From an uncultured Ruminococcus sp. (GTDB taxonomy: Bacteria; Bacillota; Clostridia; Oscillospirales; Acutalibacteraceae): a DNA stretch of 47,572 nt. Shown in pieces: positions 14,909 through 23,952 of this stretch. The notes below the pieces were generated by a model. It did not search any database, was not told where the DNA came from, and worked only from the letters and a program-made list of their open reading frames with translations. A program made the translations under genes and the position numbers. The stretch is taken from positions 4,457 through 52,028 of the forward strand of contig CAZTWO010000001.1 in the NCBI GenBank assembly GCA_964617965.1, read 5' to 3'. Every line of letters begins with the position of its first letter. The first letter of the stretch is position 1.

Positions 14909-15039
14909 GGGGTCAGGGACCGGGAACCGGGGGCCGGGGACTGATGAAGTCACCGGGTGATCGGGAGTTGCATAACAATTAGCAATTAGCAGTTAGCAAT
15001 TAGCAATATCGGAAGTCCTGCGGACTTGGATTTGTAAGG
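14909..15039 (+). repeat. Modular intergenic element, forward with a truncated core. GGGGTCA/GGGACC-type array (14909-14941), AGCAATT/AGCAGTT array (14975-15007) and a half-core (15010-15039).
   Basis: Direct reading. The array starts on the nucleotide after the glyA TAA. Hairpin AAGTCC-TGC-GGACTT at 15013-15027. Confidence 0.9.
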
Positions 15040-15071
15040 ATTACACTAAAAAACGGCAGAGGGAGTAATTT

Positions 15072-16718
15072 ATGAATAAGGAAAAGAGAAGTTTGCTTTT
15101 GGACAATGCGAAAAATCATATTGACAAACAAAGGCTTATGTACTGCTTTGTGCTTACGTTTGTGATAGGTTTAATCTGTCATGCGTATGCGTATCTCAAT
15201 TATCAGCCGAGCCATGACTCACTGTATGAGGCGGTTTCAAATTCCGATTATTGGGAAATGAAAATTGAGTACGGCAGATACATAAAGCCTTTGTGTGATA
15301 TGGTGCTCGGAAAGTTTGCGAGCTTTCCGTGGATAAACGGCCTTATTGCGCTTTTCTGGCTGTCTTTGTCGGCATATATTGTCACGGATATGTTCAGAAT
15401 CGAAAGACGGCGTGATATAGGTCTGTTCTGCGGAATACTTACAACCAACATTACGGTTATAAGCATGTCGGCGACGTATTTTCAGGATCTGAGCGCAAAT
15501 ATGTTTGCACTGTTTCTGTCGCTTGTCGGCACGCATATATGGTTCGACATGACAAACAGGTACGATGACCTCGGCGTCAAAAAGAAGATTCTGCTCTCGC
15601 TTGCGGCCGCCATTTGTGTATTTGTCTCAATGGGAATTTATCAGGCGTTTGTAAGCGTGCTTATTACACTTGTGCTGATAATTTCTATAATGAGACTGTT
15701 AAACGAAGAGGCCGAATGCAAAAAGGTATGGACTTACGACTTCTGGGGTGCAGGCTCGGTTATTGTCGGAAGTGTGCTGTATTACGGTGTATACAAGCTT
15801 GTTTTGCTTGTGACCGGAATTGAAATGAACACCTCTAACTATAACAGTCTTGGAAAGCTGTTTTCAAGTGAGCTGTCGGTACCGGAGCTCCTGTCCGAGA
15901 CTTTTTCATATGTCTTCAAATACATATTTACGGCACCCTATTACACCTATCCGACATATGTAACTTCCGCGATAAGCATAGCTATATTTGCCGCAATGGT
16001 TATCTGCTTTATAATAGCTGTCAGAAATCTGAGAAAGAACAAAGCGAAGAAAAGCACAAGAATATCGGTTGTATTTTTCTTTCTGATGATTCCGTTTGCG
16101 ATGAATATAGTAAATCTGCTTGGCGGCGTAACGCACGCCGTTATGATTTATTCATTCTGGTTTACTTATATTATAGCGATACTGTTTACAAAGCATTTTA
16201 CGAAAATAAAAAGCAAAATGTTCTTTGAAAGAGTAACCGCACTGCTTTTGTGCTGTCTGATTTTCGCAAATATACAGGTTGCAAATGCCGCGTATGTAAA
16301 GAAAACAACGGAACAACAGGCGACACTTTCGGTCATGACAAGAGTGCTTGACAGAATTGAATCCATTGACGGCTATGAGCCCGGCGTGACACCCGTAGCG
16401 TTTATGGGAACCCCTAACAAATATCTTACGGAATATGAGGAATTTGAAGATCAGATTTTCATAACAGGTGTAGGATATAAGTCGGTGATAACATATCCGA
16501 ATATTTACAAAAAGTATTTCAGCATGATTCTTAAGGTTGATATAAATGTCGTGAAGAACAAAGAGGCAGTTGAGATTTATGATAAAAACAATCTTGAAAA
16601 TATGCCGGCGTTCCCCGATAATGACAGCATTAAGGTGATTGACGGAACTGTTGTTGTAAAGTTTTCGGATAGGAAGGATAAGTCGTCGACGGAGAAAAAT
16701 GACGAGGCAAACAGTTAG
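15072..16718 (+). CDS. Polytopic integral membrane protein, possibly of the GtrII/Glucos_trans_II glucosyltransferase-domain type
   Basis: 548-aa ORF with AGGGAG RBS. It has many hydrophobic segments followed by a soluble C-terminal domain. The family assignment is from general resemblance only. Confidence 0.7.
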   Translation: MNKEKRSLLLDNAKNHIDKQRLMYCFVLTFVIGLICHAYAYLNYQPSHDSLYEAVSNSDYWEMKIEYGRYIKPLCDMVLGKFASFPWINGLIALFWLSLSAYIVTDMFRIERRRDIGLFCGILTTNITVISMSATYFQDLSANMFALFLSLVGTHIWFDMTNRYDDLGVKKKILLSLAAAICVFVSMGIYQAFVSVLITLVLIISIMRLLNEEAECKKVWTYDFWGAGSVIVGSVLYYGVYKLVLLVTGIEMNTSNYNSLGKLFSSELSVPELLSETFSYVFKYIFTAPYYTYPTYVTSAISIAIFAAMVICFIIAVRNLRKNKAKKSTRISVVFFFLMIPFAMNIVNLLGGVTHAVMIYSFWFTYIIAILFTKHFTKIKSKMFFERVTALLLCCLIFANIQVANAAYVKKTTEQQATLSVMTRVLDRIESIDGYEPGVTPVAFMGTPNKYLTEYEEFEDQIFITGVGYKSVITYPNIYKKYFSMILKVDINVVKNKEAVEIYDKNNLENMPAFPDNDSIKVIDGTVVVKFSDRKDKSSTEKNDEANS

Positions 16719-16962
16719 CAAGGAGCAAGGAGCAAGGAGCAAGGAGCAGTTATCGGTGAACAGTTACCTGTGACCGAAGGATTATCTTTATTGACACATA
16801 AATGCCACTTTTACTTACTTTTTCTATATAACAAAAAAAGGACAGCCTATGCAGATAAGCTGTCCTTTAGTTTTCTCTTTTTGCAGCCGCAACGCTTTAT
16901 AATCCAAAACGCCATGCGTTTTCCTTATCCTCCGGCCACTGGATACTGACCACTGAATATGG
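16717..16962 (-). repeat. Modular intergenic element, reverse. AGCAAGG x4.5 array (16717-16749) overlapping the upstream stop codon, a long central insert, a reverse half-core (16883-16924) and a CCACTGG/ATACTGA array (16935-16962).
   Basis: Direct reading. Hairpin AAAACGC-CAT-GCGTTTT at 16906-16922. The central insert carries the terminator at 16837-16868. Confidence 0.85.
16837..16868. terminator. Bidirectional terminator between the membrane-protein gene (+) and yajC (-)
   Basis: Stem AAAGGACAGC (16837-16846) pairs with GCTGTCCTTT (16859-16868) around a 12-nt loop. An A-run lies upstream and T-rich sequence downstream. Confidence 0.65.
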
Positions 16963-16982: not shown

Positions 16983-17459
16983 TTATTCGGCGTCTTTTTT
17001 GGTGTCGTCGGAAGCGGGAGCTTCATTCTTGGACTTTCTCTTGCCGGCCTTTTTCTCTTCTTTTTCTGCCTGCTTTGCGGCTTCAAGAGCTGCCTTTTCT
17101 TCGGCAAGACGGGCGTTTGCGGTGTCATTGGTCTGAATAGCCCAACGCATGAACTTGACCTTTGTTCTGTCGGCACCTGTTTCGATAACGATTGAATCTT
17201 CTTTTACTGTAACAATTCTGCCGCTGATGCCGCCGATTGTTGTGATTTCGTCGCCTATCTGGATTGAATCACGAAGCTTCTGCTCTTCCTGCTGTTTTTT
17301 CTTCTGAGGTCTGATCATTATGAAATACATAACGGCAACCATAAGAACAAGCATGATAATCATGGAAGCAGAGCTGCCCGAGCCTGAAGTTGTGCCTGTT
17401 GTGGAGCTTGCCGCTGTGCTTGAAGAGCCAAAGAAATTACTGAGCAAATTAAATACCAT
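16983..17459 (-). CDS. yajC: Preprotein translocase subunit YajC, with a Ser/Thr/Gly-rich N-terminus and a long Lys/Glu/Ala-rich C-terminal extension
   Basis: The YajC core is MYFIMIRPQKKKQQE...IGDEITTIGGISGRIV. The ATG at 17459 lies 8 nt from a GGAGGG RBS. The ORF-track start at 17462 is a TTG. Confidence 0.88.
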   Translation of the reverse strand: MVFNLLSNFFGSSSTAASSTTGTTSGSGSSASMIIMLVLMVAVMYFIMIRPQKKKQQEEQKLRDSIQIGDEITTIGGISGRIVTVKEDSIVIETGADRTKVKFMRWAIQTNDTANARLAEEKAALEAAKQAEKEEKKAGKRKSKNEAPASDDTKKDAE

Positions 17460-17543
17460 CAATTTTACCCTCCGGTTAACATAATGTAATTATTATATTG
17501 TTTACAAGAGTAAAAAGCAAGATGTTTTAAAAAAATTTACAAT

Positions 17544-17993
17544 TTACTTTGTGATTTTAGACAGGATTTCGTTGTAAATCGCCGTCAGCTCGTCTTTTGT
17601 AAGACTTTCACCGATATTAAAGAGAGTTACGGCAACAAAAATACAATCGGGATTTTGTGTTTGTCGCACATACTCGCCGACAGCTTTTGCGATATCTGTT
17701 TTAAGCGAACGAATTTCGATGTCCGTTTCTGTATTTATATCATAGTCGGCGGTTCTGCCGCACGGAATCGGGCACACGGAGCAGTCGGGGGCAAGCGTAT
17801 GCTTTTCGGTCGTAAGACTGTCTGTCAGTGTCTGTATTTCATTATCGGAAACACCGTCATCGGATAGACCTAAGACGGCCTTCAGGACAAGCGGAAAAGT
17901 TTTTTCGGTTGTCACTTCCCCGCCGCCTGTGGCTCTCACAGTGCCGATTAAAGCACCGAGCATAGTATTTTTGATGGGTGTAAGATTATTCAT
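17544..17993 (-). CDS. Hypothetical Cys-containing protein (149 aa) with a possible resemblance to the helical N-terminal region of hybrid-cluster protein (Hcp)
   Basis: The ATG at 17993 overlaps the upstream gene's stop by 8 nt, suggesting translational coupling. It contains a CSVCPIPCGRTADYD motif. The segment DIEIRSLKTDI resembles the Hcp NEDVRSLRELL region (from memory, unverified). Confidence 0.65.
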   Translation of the reverse strand: MNNLTPIKNTMLGALIGTVRATGGGEVTTEKTFPLVLKAVLGLSDDGVSDNEIQTLTDSLTTEKHTLAPDCSVCPIPCGRTADYDINTETDIEIRSLKTDIAKAVGEYVRQTQNPDCIFVAVTLFNIGESLTKDELTAIYNEILSKITK

Positions 17994-18699: not shown

Positions 18700-18755
18700 G
18701 ATATAAGCCTCCTTGCTTTTGTAGGCTTATTATAGTACAATAAAGTCGTAATGTC

Positions 18756-18771
18756 TGTTGAATTTTCAACA
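18756..18771. promoter_or_regulatory. Perfect 16-bp palindrome TGTTGAATTTTCAACA, a candidate Crp/Fnr-family operator in a divergent intergenic region
   Basis: The 5-6-5 layout matches the Crp-family TGTGA-N6-TCACA architecture. It lies 57 nt upstream of the ferredoxin-gene ATG (minus strand) and 5 nt upstream of the regulator ATG (plus strand). Confidence 0.5.
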
Positions 18772-18776
18772 AAAGG

Positions 18777-19448
18777 ATGATTTTTACGGAAAATTATTAT
18801 AATATTCTTCTCTCATCAAGACTTTTTGCGGGAATAAGCGAAAACGAGCTTAAGTCCGTCCTGTCCTGCCTTGAAGCGAGAACAAAAAAATTCGCAAAAG
18901 ATGAAACCATAATGTATTCGGGCGACACTACAAATGAAATAGGCTTTGTTCTTTCGGGCAATGTGCTTGTCATTCAGGATGACATATGGGGCAACAGAAA
19001 TATTCTGTCAAAAGTAAAGGTCGGTGAGAGCTTTGCGTCCGTTTTCGCCTGTGCCGCAGGTGCGACGCTTAATGTAAATATAATTGCCGAAAACGATACC
19101 GAAATTCTTTTTGTAAATGTAAACAAGATTCTGAATGTCTGCTCCTCCGCCTGCACTCATCACAGCATAATCGTACGAAATCTGTTAAGCGAGCTTGCCG
19201 AAAAAAATCTTAAGATGAACGAAAAACTGACGCACATTAGCAAACGCTCAACCCGTGACAAGCTTATGTCATATTTTTCCGCAACGGCGCAAAGAGCGAA
19301 CTCGAATGAATTTGATATACCGTTCTCACGCCAGCAATTAGCCGACTTCCTCGCAGTCGACCGCAGCGGCCTGTCTTCGGAACTCGGCAAGATGCAAAAA
19401 GAGGGGTTGATTGAGTATAACAAAAATCATATCAGGCTTACAGTATAA
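18777..19448 (+). CDS. Crp/Fnr-family transcriptional regulator (cNMP-binding domain plus C-terminal HTH)
   Basis: 223-aa ORF. The N-terminal beta-roll region and the C-terminal HTH (SRQQLADFLAVDRSGLSSELGKMQKEGLI) are typical of the family. Confidence 0.9.
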   Translation: MIFTENYYNILLSSRLFAGISENELKSVLSCLEARTKKFAKDETIMYSGDTTNEIGFVLSGNVLVIQDDIWGNRNILSKVKVGESFASVFACAAGATLNVNIIAENDTEILFVNVNKILNVCSSACTHHSIIVRNLLSELAEKNLKMNEKLTHISKRSTRDKLMSYFSATAQRANSNEFDIPFSRQQLADFLAVDRSGLSSELGKMQKEGLIEYNKNHIRLTV

Positions 19449-19576
19449 AAAGCCGTTACCGTTTTATCCGTAAGCATCAATTTAGCAATTTGCATACACT
19501 GATTCTTGCTAACTACAGTTATTACTATCAATTTTATGTTTATTTTAGGCATAATTTTCTAAAGTTACAATACTTT

Positions 19577-19638
19577 CTGCATCTTTTTGAAAAACATGCA
19601 GGTTAGATATTGATTTCAGTGATATTTAATGTTATACT
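19577..19638 (+). promoter_or_regulatory. Near-perfect 25-bp palindrome (19577-19601) abutting a consensus-like promoter TTGATT-N17-TATACT (19610-19638) upstream of fic
   Basis: The palindrome reads CTGCAT-C-TTTTT-G-AAAAA-C-ATGCAG. Hexamers at 19610-19615 and 19633-19638 are separated by a 17-nt spacer. Confidence 0.55.
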
Positions 19639-19659
19639 ATAAGAAAAGAGGTAAATACA

Positions 19660-20739
19660 ATGGTTTTAGCAACATTAAATGAACGAAAAAATGACTTCAA
19701 TGCGAACTTTTTTATTAATGAATTGTTTGAAGCTTCAAAACTCCTTGGAGCCCTCGAAGCGAAAATCAGCAGTTATCAGTTTAATAGTATTTTAATTCCG
19801 ATGTTTCGCAACAAGGAAGCGATCTCTTCAATGTCTATTGAAGGCAGCGAAACAACAATTACGGATGTTCTTGAAGATAATATCCGTACAACAAAAGACA
19901 CAAAAGACAAAGTTATTCTTGAATATCGCAATCACACGAATGCCATTCTTTACGGGACAGATTATCTGCGTTCAAGCGGATTTACAAATGAATTAATGTA
20001 TGAACTTCACAAAATAATGATGAGCGGTATTCTTCCTACAGGAAAACAATCTTGTGTCGGAAAATACAAAGAAAAAGACAACTTTATAGTAAACAGTGTA
20101 GGAACAGTTGTTTTTACTCCGCCGTCTCACACCGAAACACAGGCATATATGAAGGATTTGCTGAAATTTATGAATGACACAACAGATGAAATAAATCCAT
20201 TGATAAAAGCCGCTATTATACATAGTCAATTTGAATCCATTCATCCATTTGAAGACGGTAACGGACGAGTAGGACGGTTACTTGTAAGTTTATACCTTTA
20301 CAAATCATGTGTCATTAATTTTCCGTTTTTCTACATCAGCGAAGCAATAAGTCAAGATAAAGGTGTTTATTATAAGAAATTGACAGATTCACGTTCAAAT
20401 AGCTATGATGAATGGATTCGGTTCTTTTTGCAAAAGTGCGTTGTACAAGCAAAAAGGCTAAATGGTTACATTGATGCTCTTAACAAGCTATACGAAAAAA
20501 CTAAGTGCGAAATCAAGAATACAATAAACAGTCCTAAATTTGACAAAATAATCGAATGTATCTTTACACAGCCGGTTCAAACCGTTGTTTATTTAGCCGA
20601 ACAGCTTTCTGTAACAACCGGACAGGCAAAACGATATCTTGATAAATTAGAGGAAGCTCAAATTCTTTTTGGCGACGACCGCAAACGCGGCAGAAGATAT
20701 TATTTCATGCAGCTTTTGGATTTGGCAAGAACACAGTAA
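19660..20739 (+). CDS. Fic-family protein (AMPylase-type) with an N-terminal inhibitory-helix motif and a C-terminal wHTH-like region
   Basis: Fic motif HPFEDGNGRVGR (aa 195-206). The [ST]xxxE[GN] motif SMSIEG (aa 57-62) lies upstream, the class II arrangement. AGAGG RBS. Confidence 0.92.
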   Translation: MVLATLNERKNDFNANFFINELFEASKLLGALEAKISSYQFNSILIPMFRNKEAISSMSIEGSETTITDVLEDNIRTTKDTKDKVILEYRNHTNAILYGTDYLRSSGFTNELMYELHKIMMSGILPTGKQSCVGKYKEKDNFIVNSVGTVVFTPPSHTETQAYMKDLLKFMNDTTDEINPLIKAAIIHSQFESIHPFEDGNGRVGRLLVSLYLYKSCVINFPFFYISEAISQDKGVYYKKLTDSRSNSYDEWIRFFLQKCVVQAKRLNGYIDALNKLYEKTKCEIKNTINSPKFDKIIECIFTQPVQTVVYLAEQLSVTTGQAKRYLDKLEEAQILFGDDRKRGRRYYFMQLLDLARTQ

Positions 20740-20893
20740 TATTCACATAATAAAAAGTTGGTGATGCGTATGATTGTAAACAAATAAAACACACTGAAAA
20801 GCCGCGGCAACAGCAATTCAATGTGTTTCAAACAGATATGCAATTTGCAAATCCGACGACTGCCATTTTAGCATATCTGACATGAGATTACAA

Positions 20894-20922
20894 TTGACTT
20901 TTTACACAAAAAATTTTATCAA
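20894..20922 (+). promoter_or_regulatory. Candidate promoter TTGACT-N17-TATCAA for the 4-gene operon, overlapped by a direct repeat CAATTGAC.TTTTA (20891 and 20920)
   Basis: Hexamers at 20894-20899 and 20917-20922 with a 17-nt spacer. Confidence 0.45.
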
Positions 20923-20956
20923 TTGACGTTTTATCGATCGTCAGAAAGAAGCAATT

Positions 20957-21643
20957 ATGAATTTAATTAAATTGATGCATATTGCAGATAAGCTTTACCA
21001 ATATGCAAATGAAAAAATCGAGTTCGATTCAGACGGATGGCCTGTTTTTCGAAAAGAACATTTTCTTGAAAAGTGGCCTCATGACATGGTCACATTTGAG
21101 AACAGAACGAGTCATCTAATCAAAGCGGAAACAGAAACAGTACTTTGCTTCTATATGGGTGATATTTCAAATTTCCGTCGTTTTAAAAATTTGTTTAATG
21201 ACATTTCCATCTATCAACGATACTTAGGTGTAGTCGTACCTGATATAACCGTCACAAAAGATATGGATCTTGAAATGCAGGAAATGATAATGCTTGTAAA
21301 TCAACTTTTTTCAGCAGTACTTGCAGTCAATAACATCAAGATTGTGTTTAACACCCGAAACGGAAATAGCACGACATCTGATCATTTTAAACATATACCA
21401 AGACATGTAATGTGTGCTTCAGGCTTTTTAGGATGCAACAATGAAAAGAATACCATTTCAGCCGCACCGTATATAAACAAAATTCTTCGGCTGATGCCTG
21501 ATAAACTGCTGATATACGGCAAACATGACGTTATAGTAAACAATCAATTAGATGTTTTAGGTATTAACTATCGCTATTATCCGGACTTTCATACTCGAAG
21601 CAAGCATAATTCCCGTTTAACAGAAAAGGGGGATGTTGCATAA
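20957..21643 (+). CDS. Hypothetical protein (228 aa), DUF4417-like
   Basis: ORF track. The pattern FY.GD...F.R...(Y..Y.GVV.PD.....DM....Q)...IK.VFN.R.G....F..IP....A.GF.G...L.IYG resembles DUF4417 as I remember it (unverified). Confidence 0.7.
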   Translation: MNLIKLMHIADKLYQYANEKIEFDSDGWPVFRKEHFLEKWPHDMVTFENRTSHLIKAETETVLCFYMGDISNFRRFKNLFNDISIYQRYLGVVVPDITVTKDMDLEMQEMIMLVNQLFSAVLAVNNIKIVFNTRNGNSTTSDHFKHIPRHVMCASGFLGCNNEKNTISAAPYINKILRLMPDKLLIYGKHDVIVNNQLDVLGINYRYYPDFHTRSKHNSRLTEKGDVA

Positions 21644-22029
21644 TGTCAGATTACAAGTCTCCTTACTCCGATATTTCAAAAAAATACATTGAAATTTTGG
21701 TTCCCGCAAGTTCTTTGGAACAATCTCGCTATAACCGCAGCAAAGATCGCGAAAGGAAAAACAATGAAAACTGGGTTAAACAAAAAGTTAATCTGAATGA
21801 AATTGTTGATCGATTTATTCCGGAAAACAGCGATGTTGTAACACGTCGCACAGAAGGTGGTGTTAAATATATTTTTGAAGGCAGTCGCTACGCTATTAAG
21901 TGTGATAAAGTATCCGGTTACCTGAGAATTTATGACAAAAAAGCAAAATCCTATTGTTTGCCGGATGGAACACCATCAAAGGATCCGGAAAGAACACATT
22001 TCAAAATCAAACGCCGAGAGGAGATGTGA
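21643..22029 (+). CDS. Hypothetical basic protein (128 aa)
   Basis: Its ATG overlaps the preceding TAA (TAATG). The protein is Lys/Arg-rich. No family recognised. Confidence 0.7.
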   Translation: MSDYKSPYSDISKKYIEILVPASSLEQSRYNRSKDRERKNNENWVKQKVNLNEIVDRFIPENSDVVTRRTEGGVKYIFEGSRYAIKCDKVSGYLRIYDKKAKSYCLPDGTPSKDPERTHFKIKRREEM

Positions 22030-22031
22030 GC

Positions 22032-22379
22032 ATGTGGATTCGAGTTGCACTTGATAACAATGCCGTACACTGCGGAAAAAGTCCCGAATATACCTATGTT
22101 GACGGTGAAAGTATTAAAGAATTTTACTTTGATGATGAAACCGCAAAGCTATTGGAAGAAGACGGTTTTCTTTCGGAAATGTGGTCAAAACTTGACGCGT
22201 TATTTGATTGGGGAGACTGTGACTATTTTTATCCCGAAAAATGTATTAAATTCAAAGCATGGCTTGAACAGAAATTAAAAAATACGACAAATAATACACT
22301 AAAAGAAGTATATGATACCATGCTGAACATGACAAATCTTGCAATCGAATATAACACGGGAATAAGTTTCGATTTTTAA
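22032..22379 (+). CDS. Hypothetical acidic protein (115 aa)
   Basis: Internal ATG of ORF 21954..22379, placed 2 nt after the previous stop with a GAGGAG RBS inside the upstream gene's 3' end. The protein is rich in Asp/Glu and aromatic residues. Confidence 0.65.
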   Translation: MWIRVALDNNAVHCGKSPEYTYVDGESIKEFYFDDETAKLLEEDGFLSEMWSKLDALFDWGDCDYFYPEKCIKFKAWLEQKLKNTTNNTLKEVYDTMLNMTNLAIEYNTGISFDF

Positions 22380-22391
22380 GGAGGAATGTCA

Positions 22392-22808
22392 ATGAAATCC
22401 ACCTATAAGATTTTGTCTGCACACCTGGACGGCAAGCCACTCGCAAAAAATGTTCAGGTAAAAATTCAGGTGCACGAGTATGAAAAGTTATTTCCTATAA
22501 ATGCTGAGTTTAACTTGTTTGATTTCCCGCATTGCAGACGCATGCAATTAGCTTCTGAACTCTTAACATATAATCTTTCGATTATTTCAAATCAGATGCT
22601 TTTATTGGAAACACTCGAAGAGTTAATCATTAAAATTGACTATCATTCACCATTACTTCCAATCAATAATCTATTTTTGAAAAGAGTACTTCAGGCCATA
22701 GGAGTACTACAGCAAATTCGGTCCGATGTTACATACACAATTTCAGTTGAAATGAGCGATTTTGATAGCATTAAAACCATATGTAATCATCTGCAAAGTT
22801 TATCATAA
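22392..22808 (+). CDS. Hypothetical protein (138 aa)
   Basis: ORF 22386..22808. The ATG at 22392 has better spacing (8 nt) to the AGGAGG at 22378-22383. No family recognised. Confidence 0.65.
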   Translation: MKSTYKILSAHLDGKPLAKNVQVKIQVHEYEKLFPINAEFNLFDFPHCRRMQLASELLTYNLSIISNQMLLLETLEELIIKIDYHSPLLPINNLFLKRVLQAIGVLQQIRSDVTYTISVEMSDFDSIKTICNHLQSLS

Positions 22809-22881
22809 TATTGCACTTATAACCATTTGCGTTTGAAACTTCCTACAAAATTCAGCTACCGACAAAAAAGCAACAAAAAAA

Positions 22882-22925
22882 CCGCCCGACAAAGGACCTG
22901 CAAATCCTCTGCCGGGCGGGTTTAT
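22882..22925. terminator. Bidirectional terminator between the island operon (+) and iolG (-)
   Basis: Stem CCGCCCG (22882-22888) pairs with CGGGCGG (22913-22919), with a long partly paired loop. An A7 run lies upstream and TTTATTATT downstream. Confidence 0.6.
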
Positions 22926-22938
22926 TATTATTGATAAA

Positions 22939-23952
22939 TTACTTTATCTCAGACAGGGCAACGGGGCGATGCTCGGCAACGGACTTCTTAGCCGCAAGGC
23001 CGATTTTTACGCTCTGCATACCTGCGTGAATGCCGACGGGAACTTCTGTGTTGTTCTCGACAGCGTTAACGAACTGACGCATTTCTTCTGAGAAGGACTC
23101 CATGTATCTCTCAAGGAAGAAGAACAGGGGCTTTTCGCCTGTTACGCCGTCAGCGTTAGAAAGAACGGCGGATGAAAGAGTGTCGTTGGATGTAGCGACC
23201 ATACCCTTTGAACCGAAGAGCTCAGCTCTCTGATCGTAGCCGTAAGCGGCCTTTCTGGAGTTATCGATAACAGCCAGTGCGCCGTTTGCCATCTTCATTG
23301 AGATGATAGCGGTGTCAACATCGCCCTGCTCGCCGATAGCGGGATCGACAAGAACTGCGGAGTTGACATAGAGTTCTTCAACATCGCTGTTTGTAAGGAA
23401 GCATGCCATATCAAAATCATGAATGGTCATATCAAGGAAGATACCGCCAGATACGGCAATATACTTGGGGTTCGGCGGCTCGGGGTCACGTGATGTAATC
23501 TTGAGGATATGGGCCTCACCGATTTTGCCTTCGTCATAAGCCTTGCGGATTGCGGCGAAGTTGTGGTCAAAGCGGCGGTTGAAGCCGACCTGGAACTTGA
23601 TGCCGGGATGTGCCGCAAGAGCGTCGGCAACAGCCTGAATCTTTTCGATTGAATGGTCAACGGGCTTCTCGCAGAAAACGTGCTTGCCGGCGTTGATGGC
23701 TTCAATTGAAATGGAAGCGTGTGTGTCGGTTGAGGAGCAGACAAGAACAGCGTCTATCTCGGGATCTGCAAGAATGTTCTTGTAGTCGGAGTAAATGTCC
23801 TTTACGCCGAAGCTCTCGATAAAAGCCTTGGTTTCGTCATTCATAAAGGGATCTGCGACAGCCTTGACTGTTGCGTTCTTTACGTGGTAAGAAATGGACT
23901 CAAGATGAACCTTGCCAATTCTGCCCGCGCCGATAATACCTATTGTAAGCAT
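22939..23952 (-). CDS. iolG: Inositol 2-dehydrogenase (Gfo/Idh/MocA family)
   Basis: 337-aa ORF with the N-terminal Rossmann motif IGIIGAGRIGKVH. It is the last gene of the iol cluster. AGGAGA RBS. Confidence 0.85.
   Translation of the reverse strand: MLTIGIIGAGRIGKVHLESISYHVKNATVKAVADPFMNDETKAFIESFGVKDIYSDYKNILADPEIDAVLVCSSTDTHASISIEAINAGKHVFCEKPVDHSIEKIQAVADALAAHPGIKFQVGFNRRFDHNFAAIRKAYDEGKIGEAHILKITSRDPEPPNPKYIAVSGGIFLDMTIHDFDMACFLTNSDVEELYVNSAVLVDPAIGEQGDVDTAIISMKMANGALAVIDNSRKAAYGYDQRAELFGSKGMVATSNDTLSSAVLSNADGVTGEKPLFFFLERYMESFSEEMRQFVNAVENNTEVPVGIHAGMQSVKIGLAAKKSVAEHRPVALSEIK

Follow-up and report, generated by a model that had tools for sequence, protein, structure and literature searches.

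We analysed a 47,572-nucleotide (nt) stretch of DNA from an uncultured Ruminococcus sp. (contig CAZTWO010000001.1; hereafter the window) and focus here on a low-GC island at 19511-22875 that holds a gene for a Fic protein and, downstream of it, an operon of four small genes designated A, B, C and D. Judged by its relatives, the operon is one member of a family of cassettes that join a DUF4417 protein to a small predicted toxin and a predicted immunity protein. We consider it probable that Fic and the DUF4417 cassette form an acquired conflict module in which B would stop the cell under infection-like stress and thereby limit phage. An initial annotation made from the letters of the window had already proposed the island as a toxin/immunity or defence candidate. 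Throughout, L-numbers denote the contigs or loci compared and P-numbers the proteins retrieved by profile search.

A four-gene block conserved across phyla

All four genes of the block lie on the plus strand. A (20957-21643), the constant partner in the cassette, encodes a protein of 228 amino acids (aa) that matched the Pfam family PF14386 (DUF4417) at 41.2 bits, above the cut-off of 28.9 and over profile positions 18-175 of 183, as well as phrog_940 and phrog_8680 in PHROGs; the initial annotation had called it DUF4417-like. It is followed by B (21643-22029), a basic 128-aa protein with relatives found by profile search and a predicted toxin; by C (22032-22379), an acidic 115-aa protein predicted to be the immunity protein or antitoxin for B; and by D (22392-22808), a 138-aa protein that, from its distribution, appears to be a subfamily-specific partner of A. 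The tight spacing described in the initial annotation is real: A and B overlap by one base at TAATG, a 2-nt gap separates B from C, and a 12-nt gap precedes D, the start of which is the ATG at 22392 according to both AAGGAGG spacing and the conserved N-terminus MKSTYKL. Genes called separately on further contigs of this species have products of 228, 128, 115 and 138 aa.

A scan limited to a single genome of each species, with aligned A homologues as the query, recovered 53 loci, hosted by Lachnospiraceae, other Clostridia, Erysipelotrichaceae, Fibrobacter, Bifidobacterium and Eggerthellaceae/Coriobacteriia. Co-occurrence of the block genes was assessed by tblastn, clustering of open reading frames (ORFs) and profile searches, and A, B, C and D were found together in about 50 of the 53 loci, which come from four phyla. 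Their order is A-B-C-D in approximately 34 loci, B-C-D-A in approximately 11 and B-C-regulator-A-D in three. C directly follows B in nearly all loci holding both (the exceptions are L041 and L048), and A and D, the latter present in nearly all loci with the block, are either adjacent or placed on either side of the B-C pair; in a metagenome-assembled genome of Slackia (L043), D and A are fused in frame into one protein of 365 aa. Given the adjacency of B and C and the pairing or fusion of A and D, the block seems to consist of two sub-modules, B-C and A-D. The possibility that D is a duplicated piece of A was rejected, since hhalign of D against A showed no relation. Three tandem C paralogues stand behind a single B in Fibrobacter intestinalis (L025, 2151-3296), and the block is partly duplicated as B-C-A-B-C-D in L033 (7168-9767).

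B, C and D had been described as lacking any recognisable family, and indeed they matched nothing in Pfam, PADLOC 2.0, PHROGs or NCBIfam. Pfam scans of individual members (E ≤ 1; 49 C and 44 D homologues) gave only scattered chance matches, and sequence-profile searches of the PDB with A, B, C and D returned no significant match. The initial annotation had allowed that the four genes might turn out to have housekeeping homologues or not to travel as a block. No housekeeping homologues of the four proteins were found, and the block is conserved as a unit, with Fic upstream of it in five lineages.

Neither A nor B was matched by tblastn in 50,697 GenBank phage records, and A was found neither in PLSDB by tblastn nor in IMG/VR by profile; an origin as phage or plasmid cargo was rejected on these results. 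They also bear on the idea that the block is a remnant of a decayed prophage packaging or late region, consisting of DUF4417, a MuF-type tip and an immunity gene, that no longer has a function. DUF4417 is enriched in phages and prophages, where it is fused to ParB-CTPase domains with no function given (10.1101/2025.10.10.680097), and phage MuF proteins carry the B-like domain (see below), as such a remnant would predict. Nevertheless, the four ORFs are intact and translationally coupled, their products retain 40-80% identity across phyla with their partners unchanged, no phage structural gene lies nearby, and the subfamily is absent from the phage, IMG/VR and plasmid collections. We therefore regard a functionless remnant as very improbable.

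B as a predicted toxin and C as its likely immunity protein

B is the most conserved protein of the block, with a mean column identity of 58% and invariant residues K5, Y8, K34, D88 and H119. A profile of B run against 1.84 billion representative proteins retrieved 168 relatives, most of them free-standing and about 125 aa long, and in the distant relatives the domain (about 100 aa) forms the C-terminus of proteins of 330-400 aa. It is located behind a Phage_Mu_F/VG15 region in P0359, P0349, P0352 and P0369 and behind an Rhs-associated core in P0357 and P0365 (TIGR03696 at 46 and 41 bits, cut-off 32.5), and the match of B to these MuF and Rhs toxins begins at approximately residue 13-25. The gene for P0359 directly follows an SPP1-type portal gene of a phage. 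MuF polymorphic toxins sit after the portal and carry C-terminal toxin domains, with small immunity ORFs behind them (Jamet et al. 2017, PMC5576092); one domain from that paper, Ct_MAD, which is described for Proteobacterial phages as belonging to COG2369, was weighed by its description as a candidate identity of the B-like domain. B is predicted from these relationships to be a polymorphic-toxin warhead, homologous to the tips of MuF and Rhs toxins. Its charge, conserved His, Lys and Asp residues and associates allow the guess that it might be a small nuclease.

The isoelectric points of B (9.45) and C (4.34) are far apart, and in size, charge and adjacency the putative pair fits a two-gene type II toxin-antitoxin (TA) operon, but it is embedded here in a unit of three to four genes. 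Columns 29-115 of the C profile are matched by the ORF behind the Rhs-type B-like toxin, with an E-value that applies to a test of five sequences, and two ORFs that follow MuF-type toxins share with C only the C-terminal signature A-I-x-x-x-(T/S)-x-x-x-D-F. Because C resembles the ORFs that follow MuF and Rhs toxins (one clear match and two weak ones), it is likely to be the immunity protein of B. The toxin/immunity candidate of the initial annotation can accordingly be narrowed to this pair, with B homologous to MuF and Rhs toxin tips and C related more weakly to the ORFs downstream of them.

In-frame B-C fusions occur in two metagenomic proteins, P0250 (239 aa) and P0286 (235 aa), which are either real toxin-immunity fusions or products of lost stop codons. 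On the contig that carries the Rhs-type B-like toxin (L064, 2-1471), an Rhs-core fragment located upstream bears a different tip, which contains HERDH, and is accompanied by a 150-aa ORF of its own, an arrangement typical of arrays of orphan toxin-immunity cassettes. The AlphaFold (AF2) model of B (pLDDT 88) consists of two long helices and, after them, a meander of five to six strands. A resemblance of B to the beta-trefoil protein MITSUBA-1 was discarded, as it reflects a short hairpin repeat with per-domain E-values of 34-170.

DUF4417 as the constant partner of swappable toxins

In the AF2 model of A (pLDDT 91) there are six beta/alpha units, and the C-terminal ends of their strands carry invariant Asp, Asn, Arg, Lys and His residues, so that the modelled alpha/beta fold has an enzyme-like appearance. 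Foldseek searches with this model gave weak matches to phage TGT and, in BFVD, two phage proteins at a TM score of 0.7.

Searching metagenomes with the leader element described below, together with a search that used a canonical DUF4417 protein as query, led to cassettes built around canonical DUF4417 genes, which are about 25% identical to A and were examined in Lentisphaeria, Riflebacteria, Clostridia and others. Each of these genes overlaps, stop to start, a downstream gene for a protein of 116-170 aa, and these proteins share an N-terminal tag of about 16 aa, MG[TA]G..G.Y.NT.GS, after which they diverge. The domain behind the tag is an EndoU_bacteria toxin in six loci (Pfam 8.6e-16), five of them independent (L074 and L078 are near-identical), and an LHH nuclease toxin in L077 (9.5e-30); other tips include a weak SprT-like/HExxH domain in L073 and an unrecognised domain in L085. 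The tagged toxins are followed by an ORF of 105-130 aa, which in L077 encodes a SUKH_5/SMI1-KNR4 immunity protein (2.2e-28). Across these loci we show DUF4417 to be the constant partner of what appear to be swappable toxin-immunity pairs.

The tag may be a docking or modification site for DUF4417, and the invariant K5/Y8/S9 of B is perhaps its counterpart. In L085/L086 (2045-2578, 5682-7514), a Fic-DUF4417 cassette has a PEPCK_GTP fragment of 148-177 aa on one side and, on the other, a full-length PEPCK gene in the same orientation, which may reflect an insertion with partial duplication of the target PEPCK gene.

The nature of these toxins raises the alternative that the cassettes encode polymorphic toxins exported against neighbouring bacteria, with the tag as an export or processing signal, DUF4417 (with D) as an export, maturation or loading factor and C as protection for the producer. 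The MuF, Rhs, EndoU and LHH domains are of secreted or injected types, the immunity proteins include SUKH, and the toxins join variable C-terminal domains to a conserved N-terminal tag, a hallmark of polymorphic toxins. Moreover, DUF4417 occurs in phage packaging regions, its gene adjoining the terminase in a Streptococcus phage with no function given (PMC8066415), and MuF toxins sit in such regions as well (PMC5576092). However, neither a secretion system nor a signal peptide accompanies the cassette, nor is it linked to a membrane-protein or lysis gene, and one and the same small cassette is present in both Gram-positive (Firmicutes, Actinobacteria) and Gram-negative (Fibrobacter, Lentisphaeria) lineages. 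The regulators in front of it, described in the next section, are of the stress type or are replaced by Fic, a pattern of intracellular TA and defence systems. Export against neighbours thus appears unlikely to us.

Fic and the upstream regulator slot

The position directly upstream of the block is occupied by a recurrent set of genes. Among loci with the block, it holds a gene for an XRE-type helix-turn-helix (HTH) protein together with one for an M78 (ImmA/IrrE) peptidase with HExxH in 23 loci and a fused HTH-M78 gene in four. M78-type genes therefore fill this slot in 27 of about 49 sister loci but are absent from the window, where Fic takes their place. Fic is in the slot in five lineages (the window, L007, L008, L018 and L057), with identities to the window protein that range from 87% down to 31%. 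Canonical cassettes follow the same scheme, with HTH + M78 in L074, L077 and L087, fused forms in L078 and L079, a lone HTH gene in L082, and Fic in L076 and L085/86, the Fic protein of L085 matching SoFic at 4.2e-99. In PADLOC, fused HTH-M78 proteins matched RmrA (8.7e-55) and, weakly, capP (1.3e-13) and capH, and the lone HTH protein weakly matched capH.

HTH + M78 pairs of the CapH/CapP type are derepressors of immune operons triggered by DNA damage or single-stranded DNA, and such pairs likewise derepress integrative and conjugative elements and prophages (ImmR/ImmA) and Deinococcus repair genes (10.1101/2022.04.27.489752; 10.64898/2026.05.16.725639). A further described role is in TA-type defence systems, which they serve as promiscuous antitoxins or as sensors (10.1101/2022.05.11.491447; PMC10440598).

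Because a SoFic-type Fic repeatedly and independently fills this slot, its pairing with the cassette is not a matter of chance. The initial annotation was right that a Fic gene lies beside the four genes; its picture of a mere neighbour gives way to that of a recurrent occupant of the regulator slot. Toward the cassette, Fic may act as a regulator, as a sensor or as a co-traveller.

The slot is elaborated in some loci. In L049 (2696-9757), an extra HTH + M78 + DUF4417 set stands upstream of a complete cassette. A conserved ORF of about 169 aa with a weak DUF5615/PIN-like match (L025, 4336-4845; L030, 7326-7832; L035, 4718-5227) always follows the fused HTH-M78 gene when the pair lies between B-C and A-D.

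The fic gene of the window (19660-20739, plus strand) encodes a 359-aa protein with Fic_N (3.8e-12) and Fic (2.9e-22) domains in Pfam and a candidate C-terminal winged-helix-like domain, residues 277-350 of which matched the SoFic-like winged-helix family PF21248 at 21.9 bits, under the cut-off of 27. It matched the PADLOC SoFic model PDLC03963 at 1.5e-86, residues 12-356 aligning to profile positions 19-358 of 361. Both the catalytic motif HPFEDGNGRVGR at residue 195 (HxFx(D/E)GNGRxxR) and the inhibitory motif SMSIEG at residue 57 ((S/T)xxxE(G/N)) are intact, so that the Fic enzyme of the initial annotation can now be specified: by its domains and motifs the protein is a predicted SoFic-type AMPylase, a self-inhibited type of toxic enzyme. 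Against the NCBIfam equivalog NF046030 it scored 140.1 bits, far under the cut-off of 550, and it is therefore not an orthologue of the SoFic of S. oneidensis.

SoFic has been described as a single-gene anti-phage system (10.1101/2022.05.11.491447) and as a toxic AMPylase that acts through abortive infection (Wu et al. 2025, PMC12249575), and it is reported to AMPylate EF-Tu (preprint 10.64898/2026.07.09.737422). In E. coli an anti-Sofic protein, AS1, is reported downstream of Sofic (PMC12249575). The search for an AS1-like small antitoxin gene downstream of the window fic turned up just two candidates, a mini-ORF of 18 nt and a minus-strand ORF of 47 aa, neither of them convincing, and the plus strand of the fic-A spacer has no small gene other than that five-codon mini-ORF. 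The minus-strand ORF (20700-20843) overlaps the 3' end of fic and is probably spurious; its size matches that of AS1.

A promoter-like site of fic, found by consensus scan, lies at 19610-19638 (TTGATT-17-TATACT with a TG extension, plus strand), and its position is conserved in alignment with other lineages. Directly upstream of the -35 element is the palindrome CTGCAT-N13-ATGCAG (19577-19601, plus strand). The palindrome at the fic promoter, pointed out in the initial annotation, is kept just upstream of the -35 element in three other lineages (L007, L071/72/75 and, as GTGCAT..ATGCAC, L008), and it is a plausible operator.

A structured leader element

Of the 217-nt spacer between fic and A, about 150 nt (20754-20901, plus strand) form a structured leader element that scored 124 bits against a covariance model, R1, built from nine copies. 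The element contains a mini-ORF (20770-20787) behind a strong Shine-Dalgarno sequence, GGAGGTGAT. A first hairpin (about 20788-20827) holds the stop of the mini-ORF in its 5' arm, a second (20833-20879) has invariant arms of 9-11 bp, CAGATATGC and GCATATCTG, around a variable interior, and a TTGACT -35-like box (TCGTCAATTGAC box) is located at 20894-20899. The mini-ORF reads M-x-V-K-N-K-T-H-stop in most copies and MIVNK in the window, which has one extra base; in L009 it has no start codon.

The nucleotide sequence of the element is kept across loci that share only 25-60% identity in their proteins. Matches outside the seed scored 46-146 bits, with copies in the same place after HTH-M78 genes in L009 (7772-7924; 146 bits), L087 (3790-3936; 112 bits) and L017 (82 bits) and after Fic in L085 (3796-3940; 46 bits); a further copy lies at 965-1120 in L074. 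Weaker but position-consistent matches precede the first gene of the block in about 12 more loci, including loci in which B comes first. Across 14 copies in an alignment that was itself fitted to the model, 92% of cells pair, as opposed to 17-39% in slid controls, and 13 of 26 pairs show compensatory changes, as opposed to 5.1 ± 1.4 in shuffles. No match at E ≤ 1 was obtained from Rfam 15 in window positions 19300-23100 or at the element in L074, L087 and L009. The element might be a translated leader or attenuator RNA, an operator or a recombination site.

In one sub-lineage, a second and diverged copy of the element overlaps the 3' end of D, so that the cassette is flanked by direct copies (L029, 9683-9826; L031, 8306-8450; L047, 1560-1708; L024, 3762-3896; L015, 3243-3388; likewise in L026, L036, L049, L054 and L058). 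The C-terminus of D in that sub-lineage, YLKKKTP before the stop, corresponds to the VKNKTH before the stop of the mini-ORF. The window has no downstream copy.

Composition, borders and acquisition of the island

The G+C content of segment 19511-22875 is 0.346, compared with 0.463 for the remainder of the window. Elsewhere, 376 stretches of the same size averaged 0.463 (standard deviation 0.023, minimum 0.412), placing the island about five standard deviations below the mean. At third codon positions, the five island genes have G+C contents of 0.31-0.34, compared with 0.47-0.58 in the flanking Crp, ferredoxin, iol, SHMT and topoisomerase genes. The low-GC island had been proposed from hand counts, with the reservation that properly computed statistics might show no deviation; both measures deviate clearly. 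Milder low-GC stretches (0.34-0.42) occur elsewhere in the window, at 15000-16750, which spans a Glucos_trans_II-type gene, and at 17300-17750, near a yajC-like gene.

Looking up the identical Crp protein led to ten contigs that carry the island and to L070, which lacks it. This empty site aligns to window positions 18708-19510 (94% identity) and 22876-23430 (98%), with about 13 bases between the two. Because L070 aligns to both flanks without the island, the island is a presence/absence polymorphism of about 3.36 kb that holds both fic and the four-gene operon together with the leader element, and its limits are about 19511 and 22875. Its composition and the empty site in a related strain show that it was horizontally acquired and varies among strains, as the initial annotation had supposed from composition.

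The bidirectional terminator shared with iolG (22882-22925), which the terminator scan reproduced, had been taken as the end of the island. This G+C-rich terminator is kept in the empty site and is therefore part of the host iolG region, outside the island. The host's iolG protein groups, at 90% identity, with proteins of metagenome-assembled genomes labelled Clostridia, Oscillospiraceae/Ruminococcaceae and Acutalibacteraceae. Neither an integrase nor a transposase was found in the island, and no significant direct or inverted repeats flank its borders, as had been noted before. The supposed heptamer remnants at the island prove to be no more than chance: TGCAAnTTGCA with at most one mismatch occurs seven times against 3.0 ± 1.7 expected, a number reached in three of 100 shuffles, and the copy at 20839 lies within the conserved hairpin.

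Such mobility invites another explanation, namely that the cassette is a selfish addiction module that stabilises itself and its island, with A and D as maintenance or transfer accessories and the hairpin element as a site of recombination or transfer. Its distribution is patchy across phyla and variable among strains, its insertion sites are not conserved, direct copies of the hairpin element flank it in one sub-lineage, its toxin/immunity logic is that of TA systems, and large serine recombinases adjoin it in three loci. The conserved unit itself, however, contains no recombinase or relaxase, four conserved genes and a dedicated regulator slot exceed what an addiction pair needs, and both ImmA-type partners and SoFic have published anti-phage roles (10.1101/2022.05.11.491447; PMC10440598). 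We consider pure addiction to be quite unlikely.

Proposed mode of action

The conflict module that we favour would have two parts. The first would be Fic, a predicted self-inhibited toxic AMPylase of the SoFic type; in the second, A would be co-translated with the basic toxin B, the acidic C would keep B silent, and D would work with A. The recurrent design appears to run from an upstream sensor or regulator through the structured leader to DUF4417, a small toxin and its immunity protein. During normal growth, expression of the operon would be low and B neutralised by C. Stress typical of phage attack would raise expression or free B, the trigger being DNA damage or single-stranded DNA where the peptidase pair is present and perhaps Fic activity in the window. 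Freed B would damage nucleic acid or translation and stop the cell, and A (with D in this subfamily) might bind, modify or license the toxin through its N-terminal region. The outcome would be a growth arrest that limits the spread of phage. The toxicity and target of B, its neutralisation by C, the roles of A and D, the inducing signal and protection from phage are what we infer in this scheme.

Several observations weigh against the scheme. Among the 134 ORFs nearest to the block, 189 Pfam families are represented, of which none recurs in more than four loci; DNA methylases and AAA_14/DUF4143 proteins reach four loci each and large serine recombinases three. A conserved neighbourhood beyond the block and its regulator slot was rejected on this count, and the defence-island argument, to which the initial annotation had looked for support, is weak. 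The cassette is instead an autonomous unit inserted at many different places, often between housekeeping genes. At the level of structure, the Foldseek search of the PDB with the B model yielded E ≥ 0.09 and TM ≤ 0.3 and revealed no recognisable catalytic fold, so that the toxicity reading of B rests on its domain context, and for the A model the only matches were weak ones of TIM-barrel-like type (E about 0.01-0.1). These matches are too weak for A, and none exist for B, to assign either to a fold family, and such assignments were dropped. C and the ORFs that lie behind MuF toxins are only weakly similar (hhalign probability 11%), and only the Rhs-linked ORF matches C over most of its length. 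About 14 loci with the block have no recognisable upstream regulator, and where HTH + M78 genes are present they are co-directional with the cassette in all but one locus, unlike the described capH/capP genes. Finally, the linkage of Fic and the cassette could reflect co-mobilisation rather than joint function.

Alternatively, the conflict module could be an instance of something more specific, in which DUF4417 cassettes are a class of modular abortive-infection anti-phage systems. In that case the DUF4417 enzyme, here with D, would license or load a swappable toxin drawn from the polymorphic-toxin repertoire, a dedicated immunity protein would restrain the toxin, and the leader RNA with its translated mini-ORF would gate expression by reading a cellular alarm. 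For the Fic-linked version found in the window, that alarm would be an arrest of translation after EF-Tu is AMPylated in the SoFic manner, with Fic as sensor or first responder and the cassette as executioner. That all of these parts hold jointly strikes us as doubtful.

If the broader conflict-module reading is true, DUF4417, which is common in gut and rumen bacteria and in phages, would gain its first functional context, and the toxin domain of B, found on MuF and Rhs proteins and lacking a family model or known fold, would be defined together with its immunity family. SoFic-type Fic and RmrA/CapP-like HTH-peptidases would be interchangeable front ends, a clue to how infection is sensed, and a covarying RNA or DNA element would join the known regulators of toxic operons.

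Comparison with known systems

Polymorphic toxin-immunity cassettes, reportedly set out by Zhang and colleagues in 2012, are one close point of reference. As in MuF and Rhs polymorphic toxins, the domain of B is homologous to C-terminal tips and is common to proteins with different N-terminal regions (MuF/VG15 and the Rhs core), an immunity-like ORF follows directly downstream, and across the DUF4417 family variable toxin-immunity pairs (B-type, EndoU, LHH and HExxH-like) swap behind a constant part and a short N-terminal tag. The cassette differs from them in that its toxin is free-standing, 128-170 aa long and devoid of an N-terminal trafficking domain (B stands alone, and its sister toxins carry only the tag), whereas the constant part is a separate protein, DUF4417. 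It also has its own stress-type regulator slot and leader, and no secretion or phage-particle genes are linked to it.

RosmerTA systems (10.1101/2022.05.11.491447; Ernits et al. 2023, PMC10440598) resemble most sister loci in having an HTH protein and an HExxH M78 peptidase upstream, and this class of HTH-Zn-peptidase antitoxin (RmrA-type) pairs with many unrelated toxins. In contrast, the window has Fic, and what stands in place of a single RmrT toxin is a cassette of three or four genes that includes its own predicted immunity gene; none of the PADLOC models matched A, B, C, D, the canonical DUF4417, the EndoU toxin or the immunity ORF, nor was RmrT found. Operons with CapH/CapP (Lau et al. 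2022, 10.1101/2022.04.27.489752; Calloji et al. 2026, 10.64898/2026.05.16.725639) likewise share an HTH repressor and an M78 peptidase upstream of a toxic operon but are divergent, and no HTH-M78 module is present in the window.

The window Fic shares with the SoFic defence protein (Millman et al. 2022) a full-length model match and the inhibitory and catalytic motifs, yet it differs in orthology, in having no evident AS1-like gene and in its fixed position upstream of a DUF4417 cassette. A SoFic-type Fic occupies that position in the window and in at least five other lineages, and this association is not described. With the phage ParB-CTPase-DUF4417 fusions (10.1101/2025.10.10.680097), A has PF14386 in common, although A has no ParB domain and its subfamily was not found in the phage and IMG/VR collections.

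Neither PADLOC 2.0 nor the literature that we found mentioning DUF4417 contains the assembly as a whole, and the cassette family is apparently widespread but undescribed. Its logic is known, with a polymorphic-toxin warhead, an immunity protein and an ImmA-type or Fic front end. What is new lies in the assembly: DUF4417 as the constant partner, free-standing tagged toxins, and D together with a structured leader.

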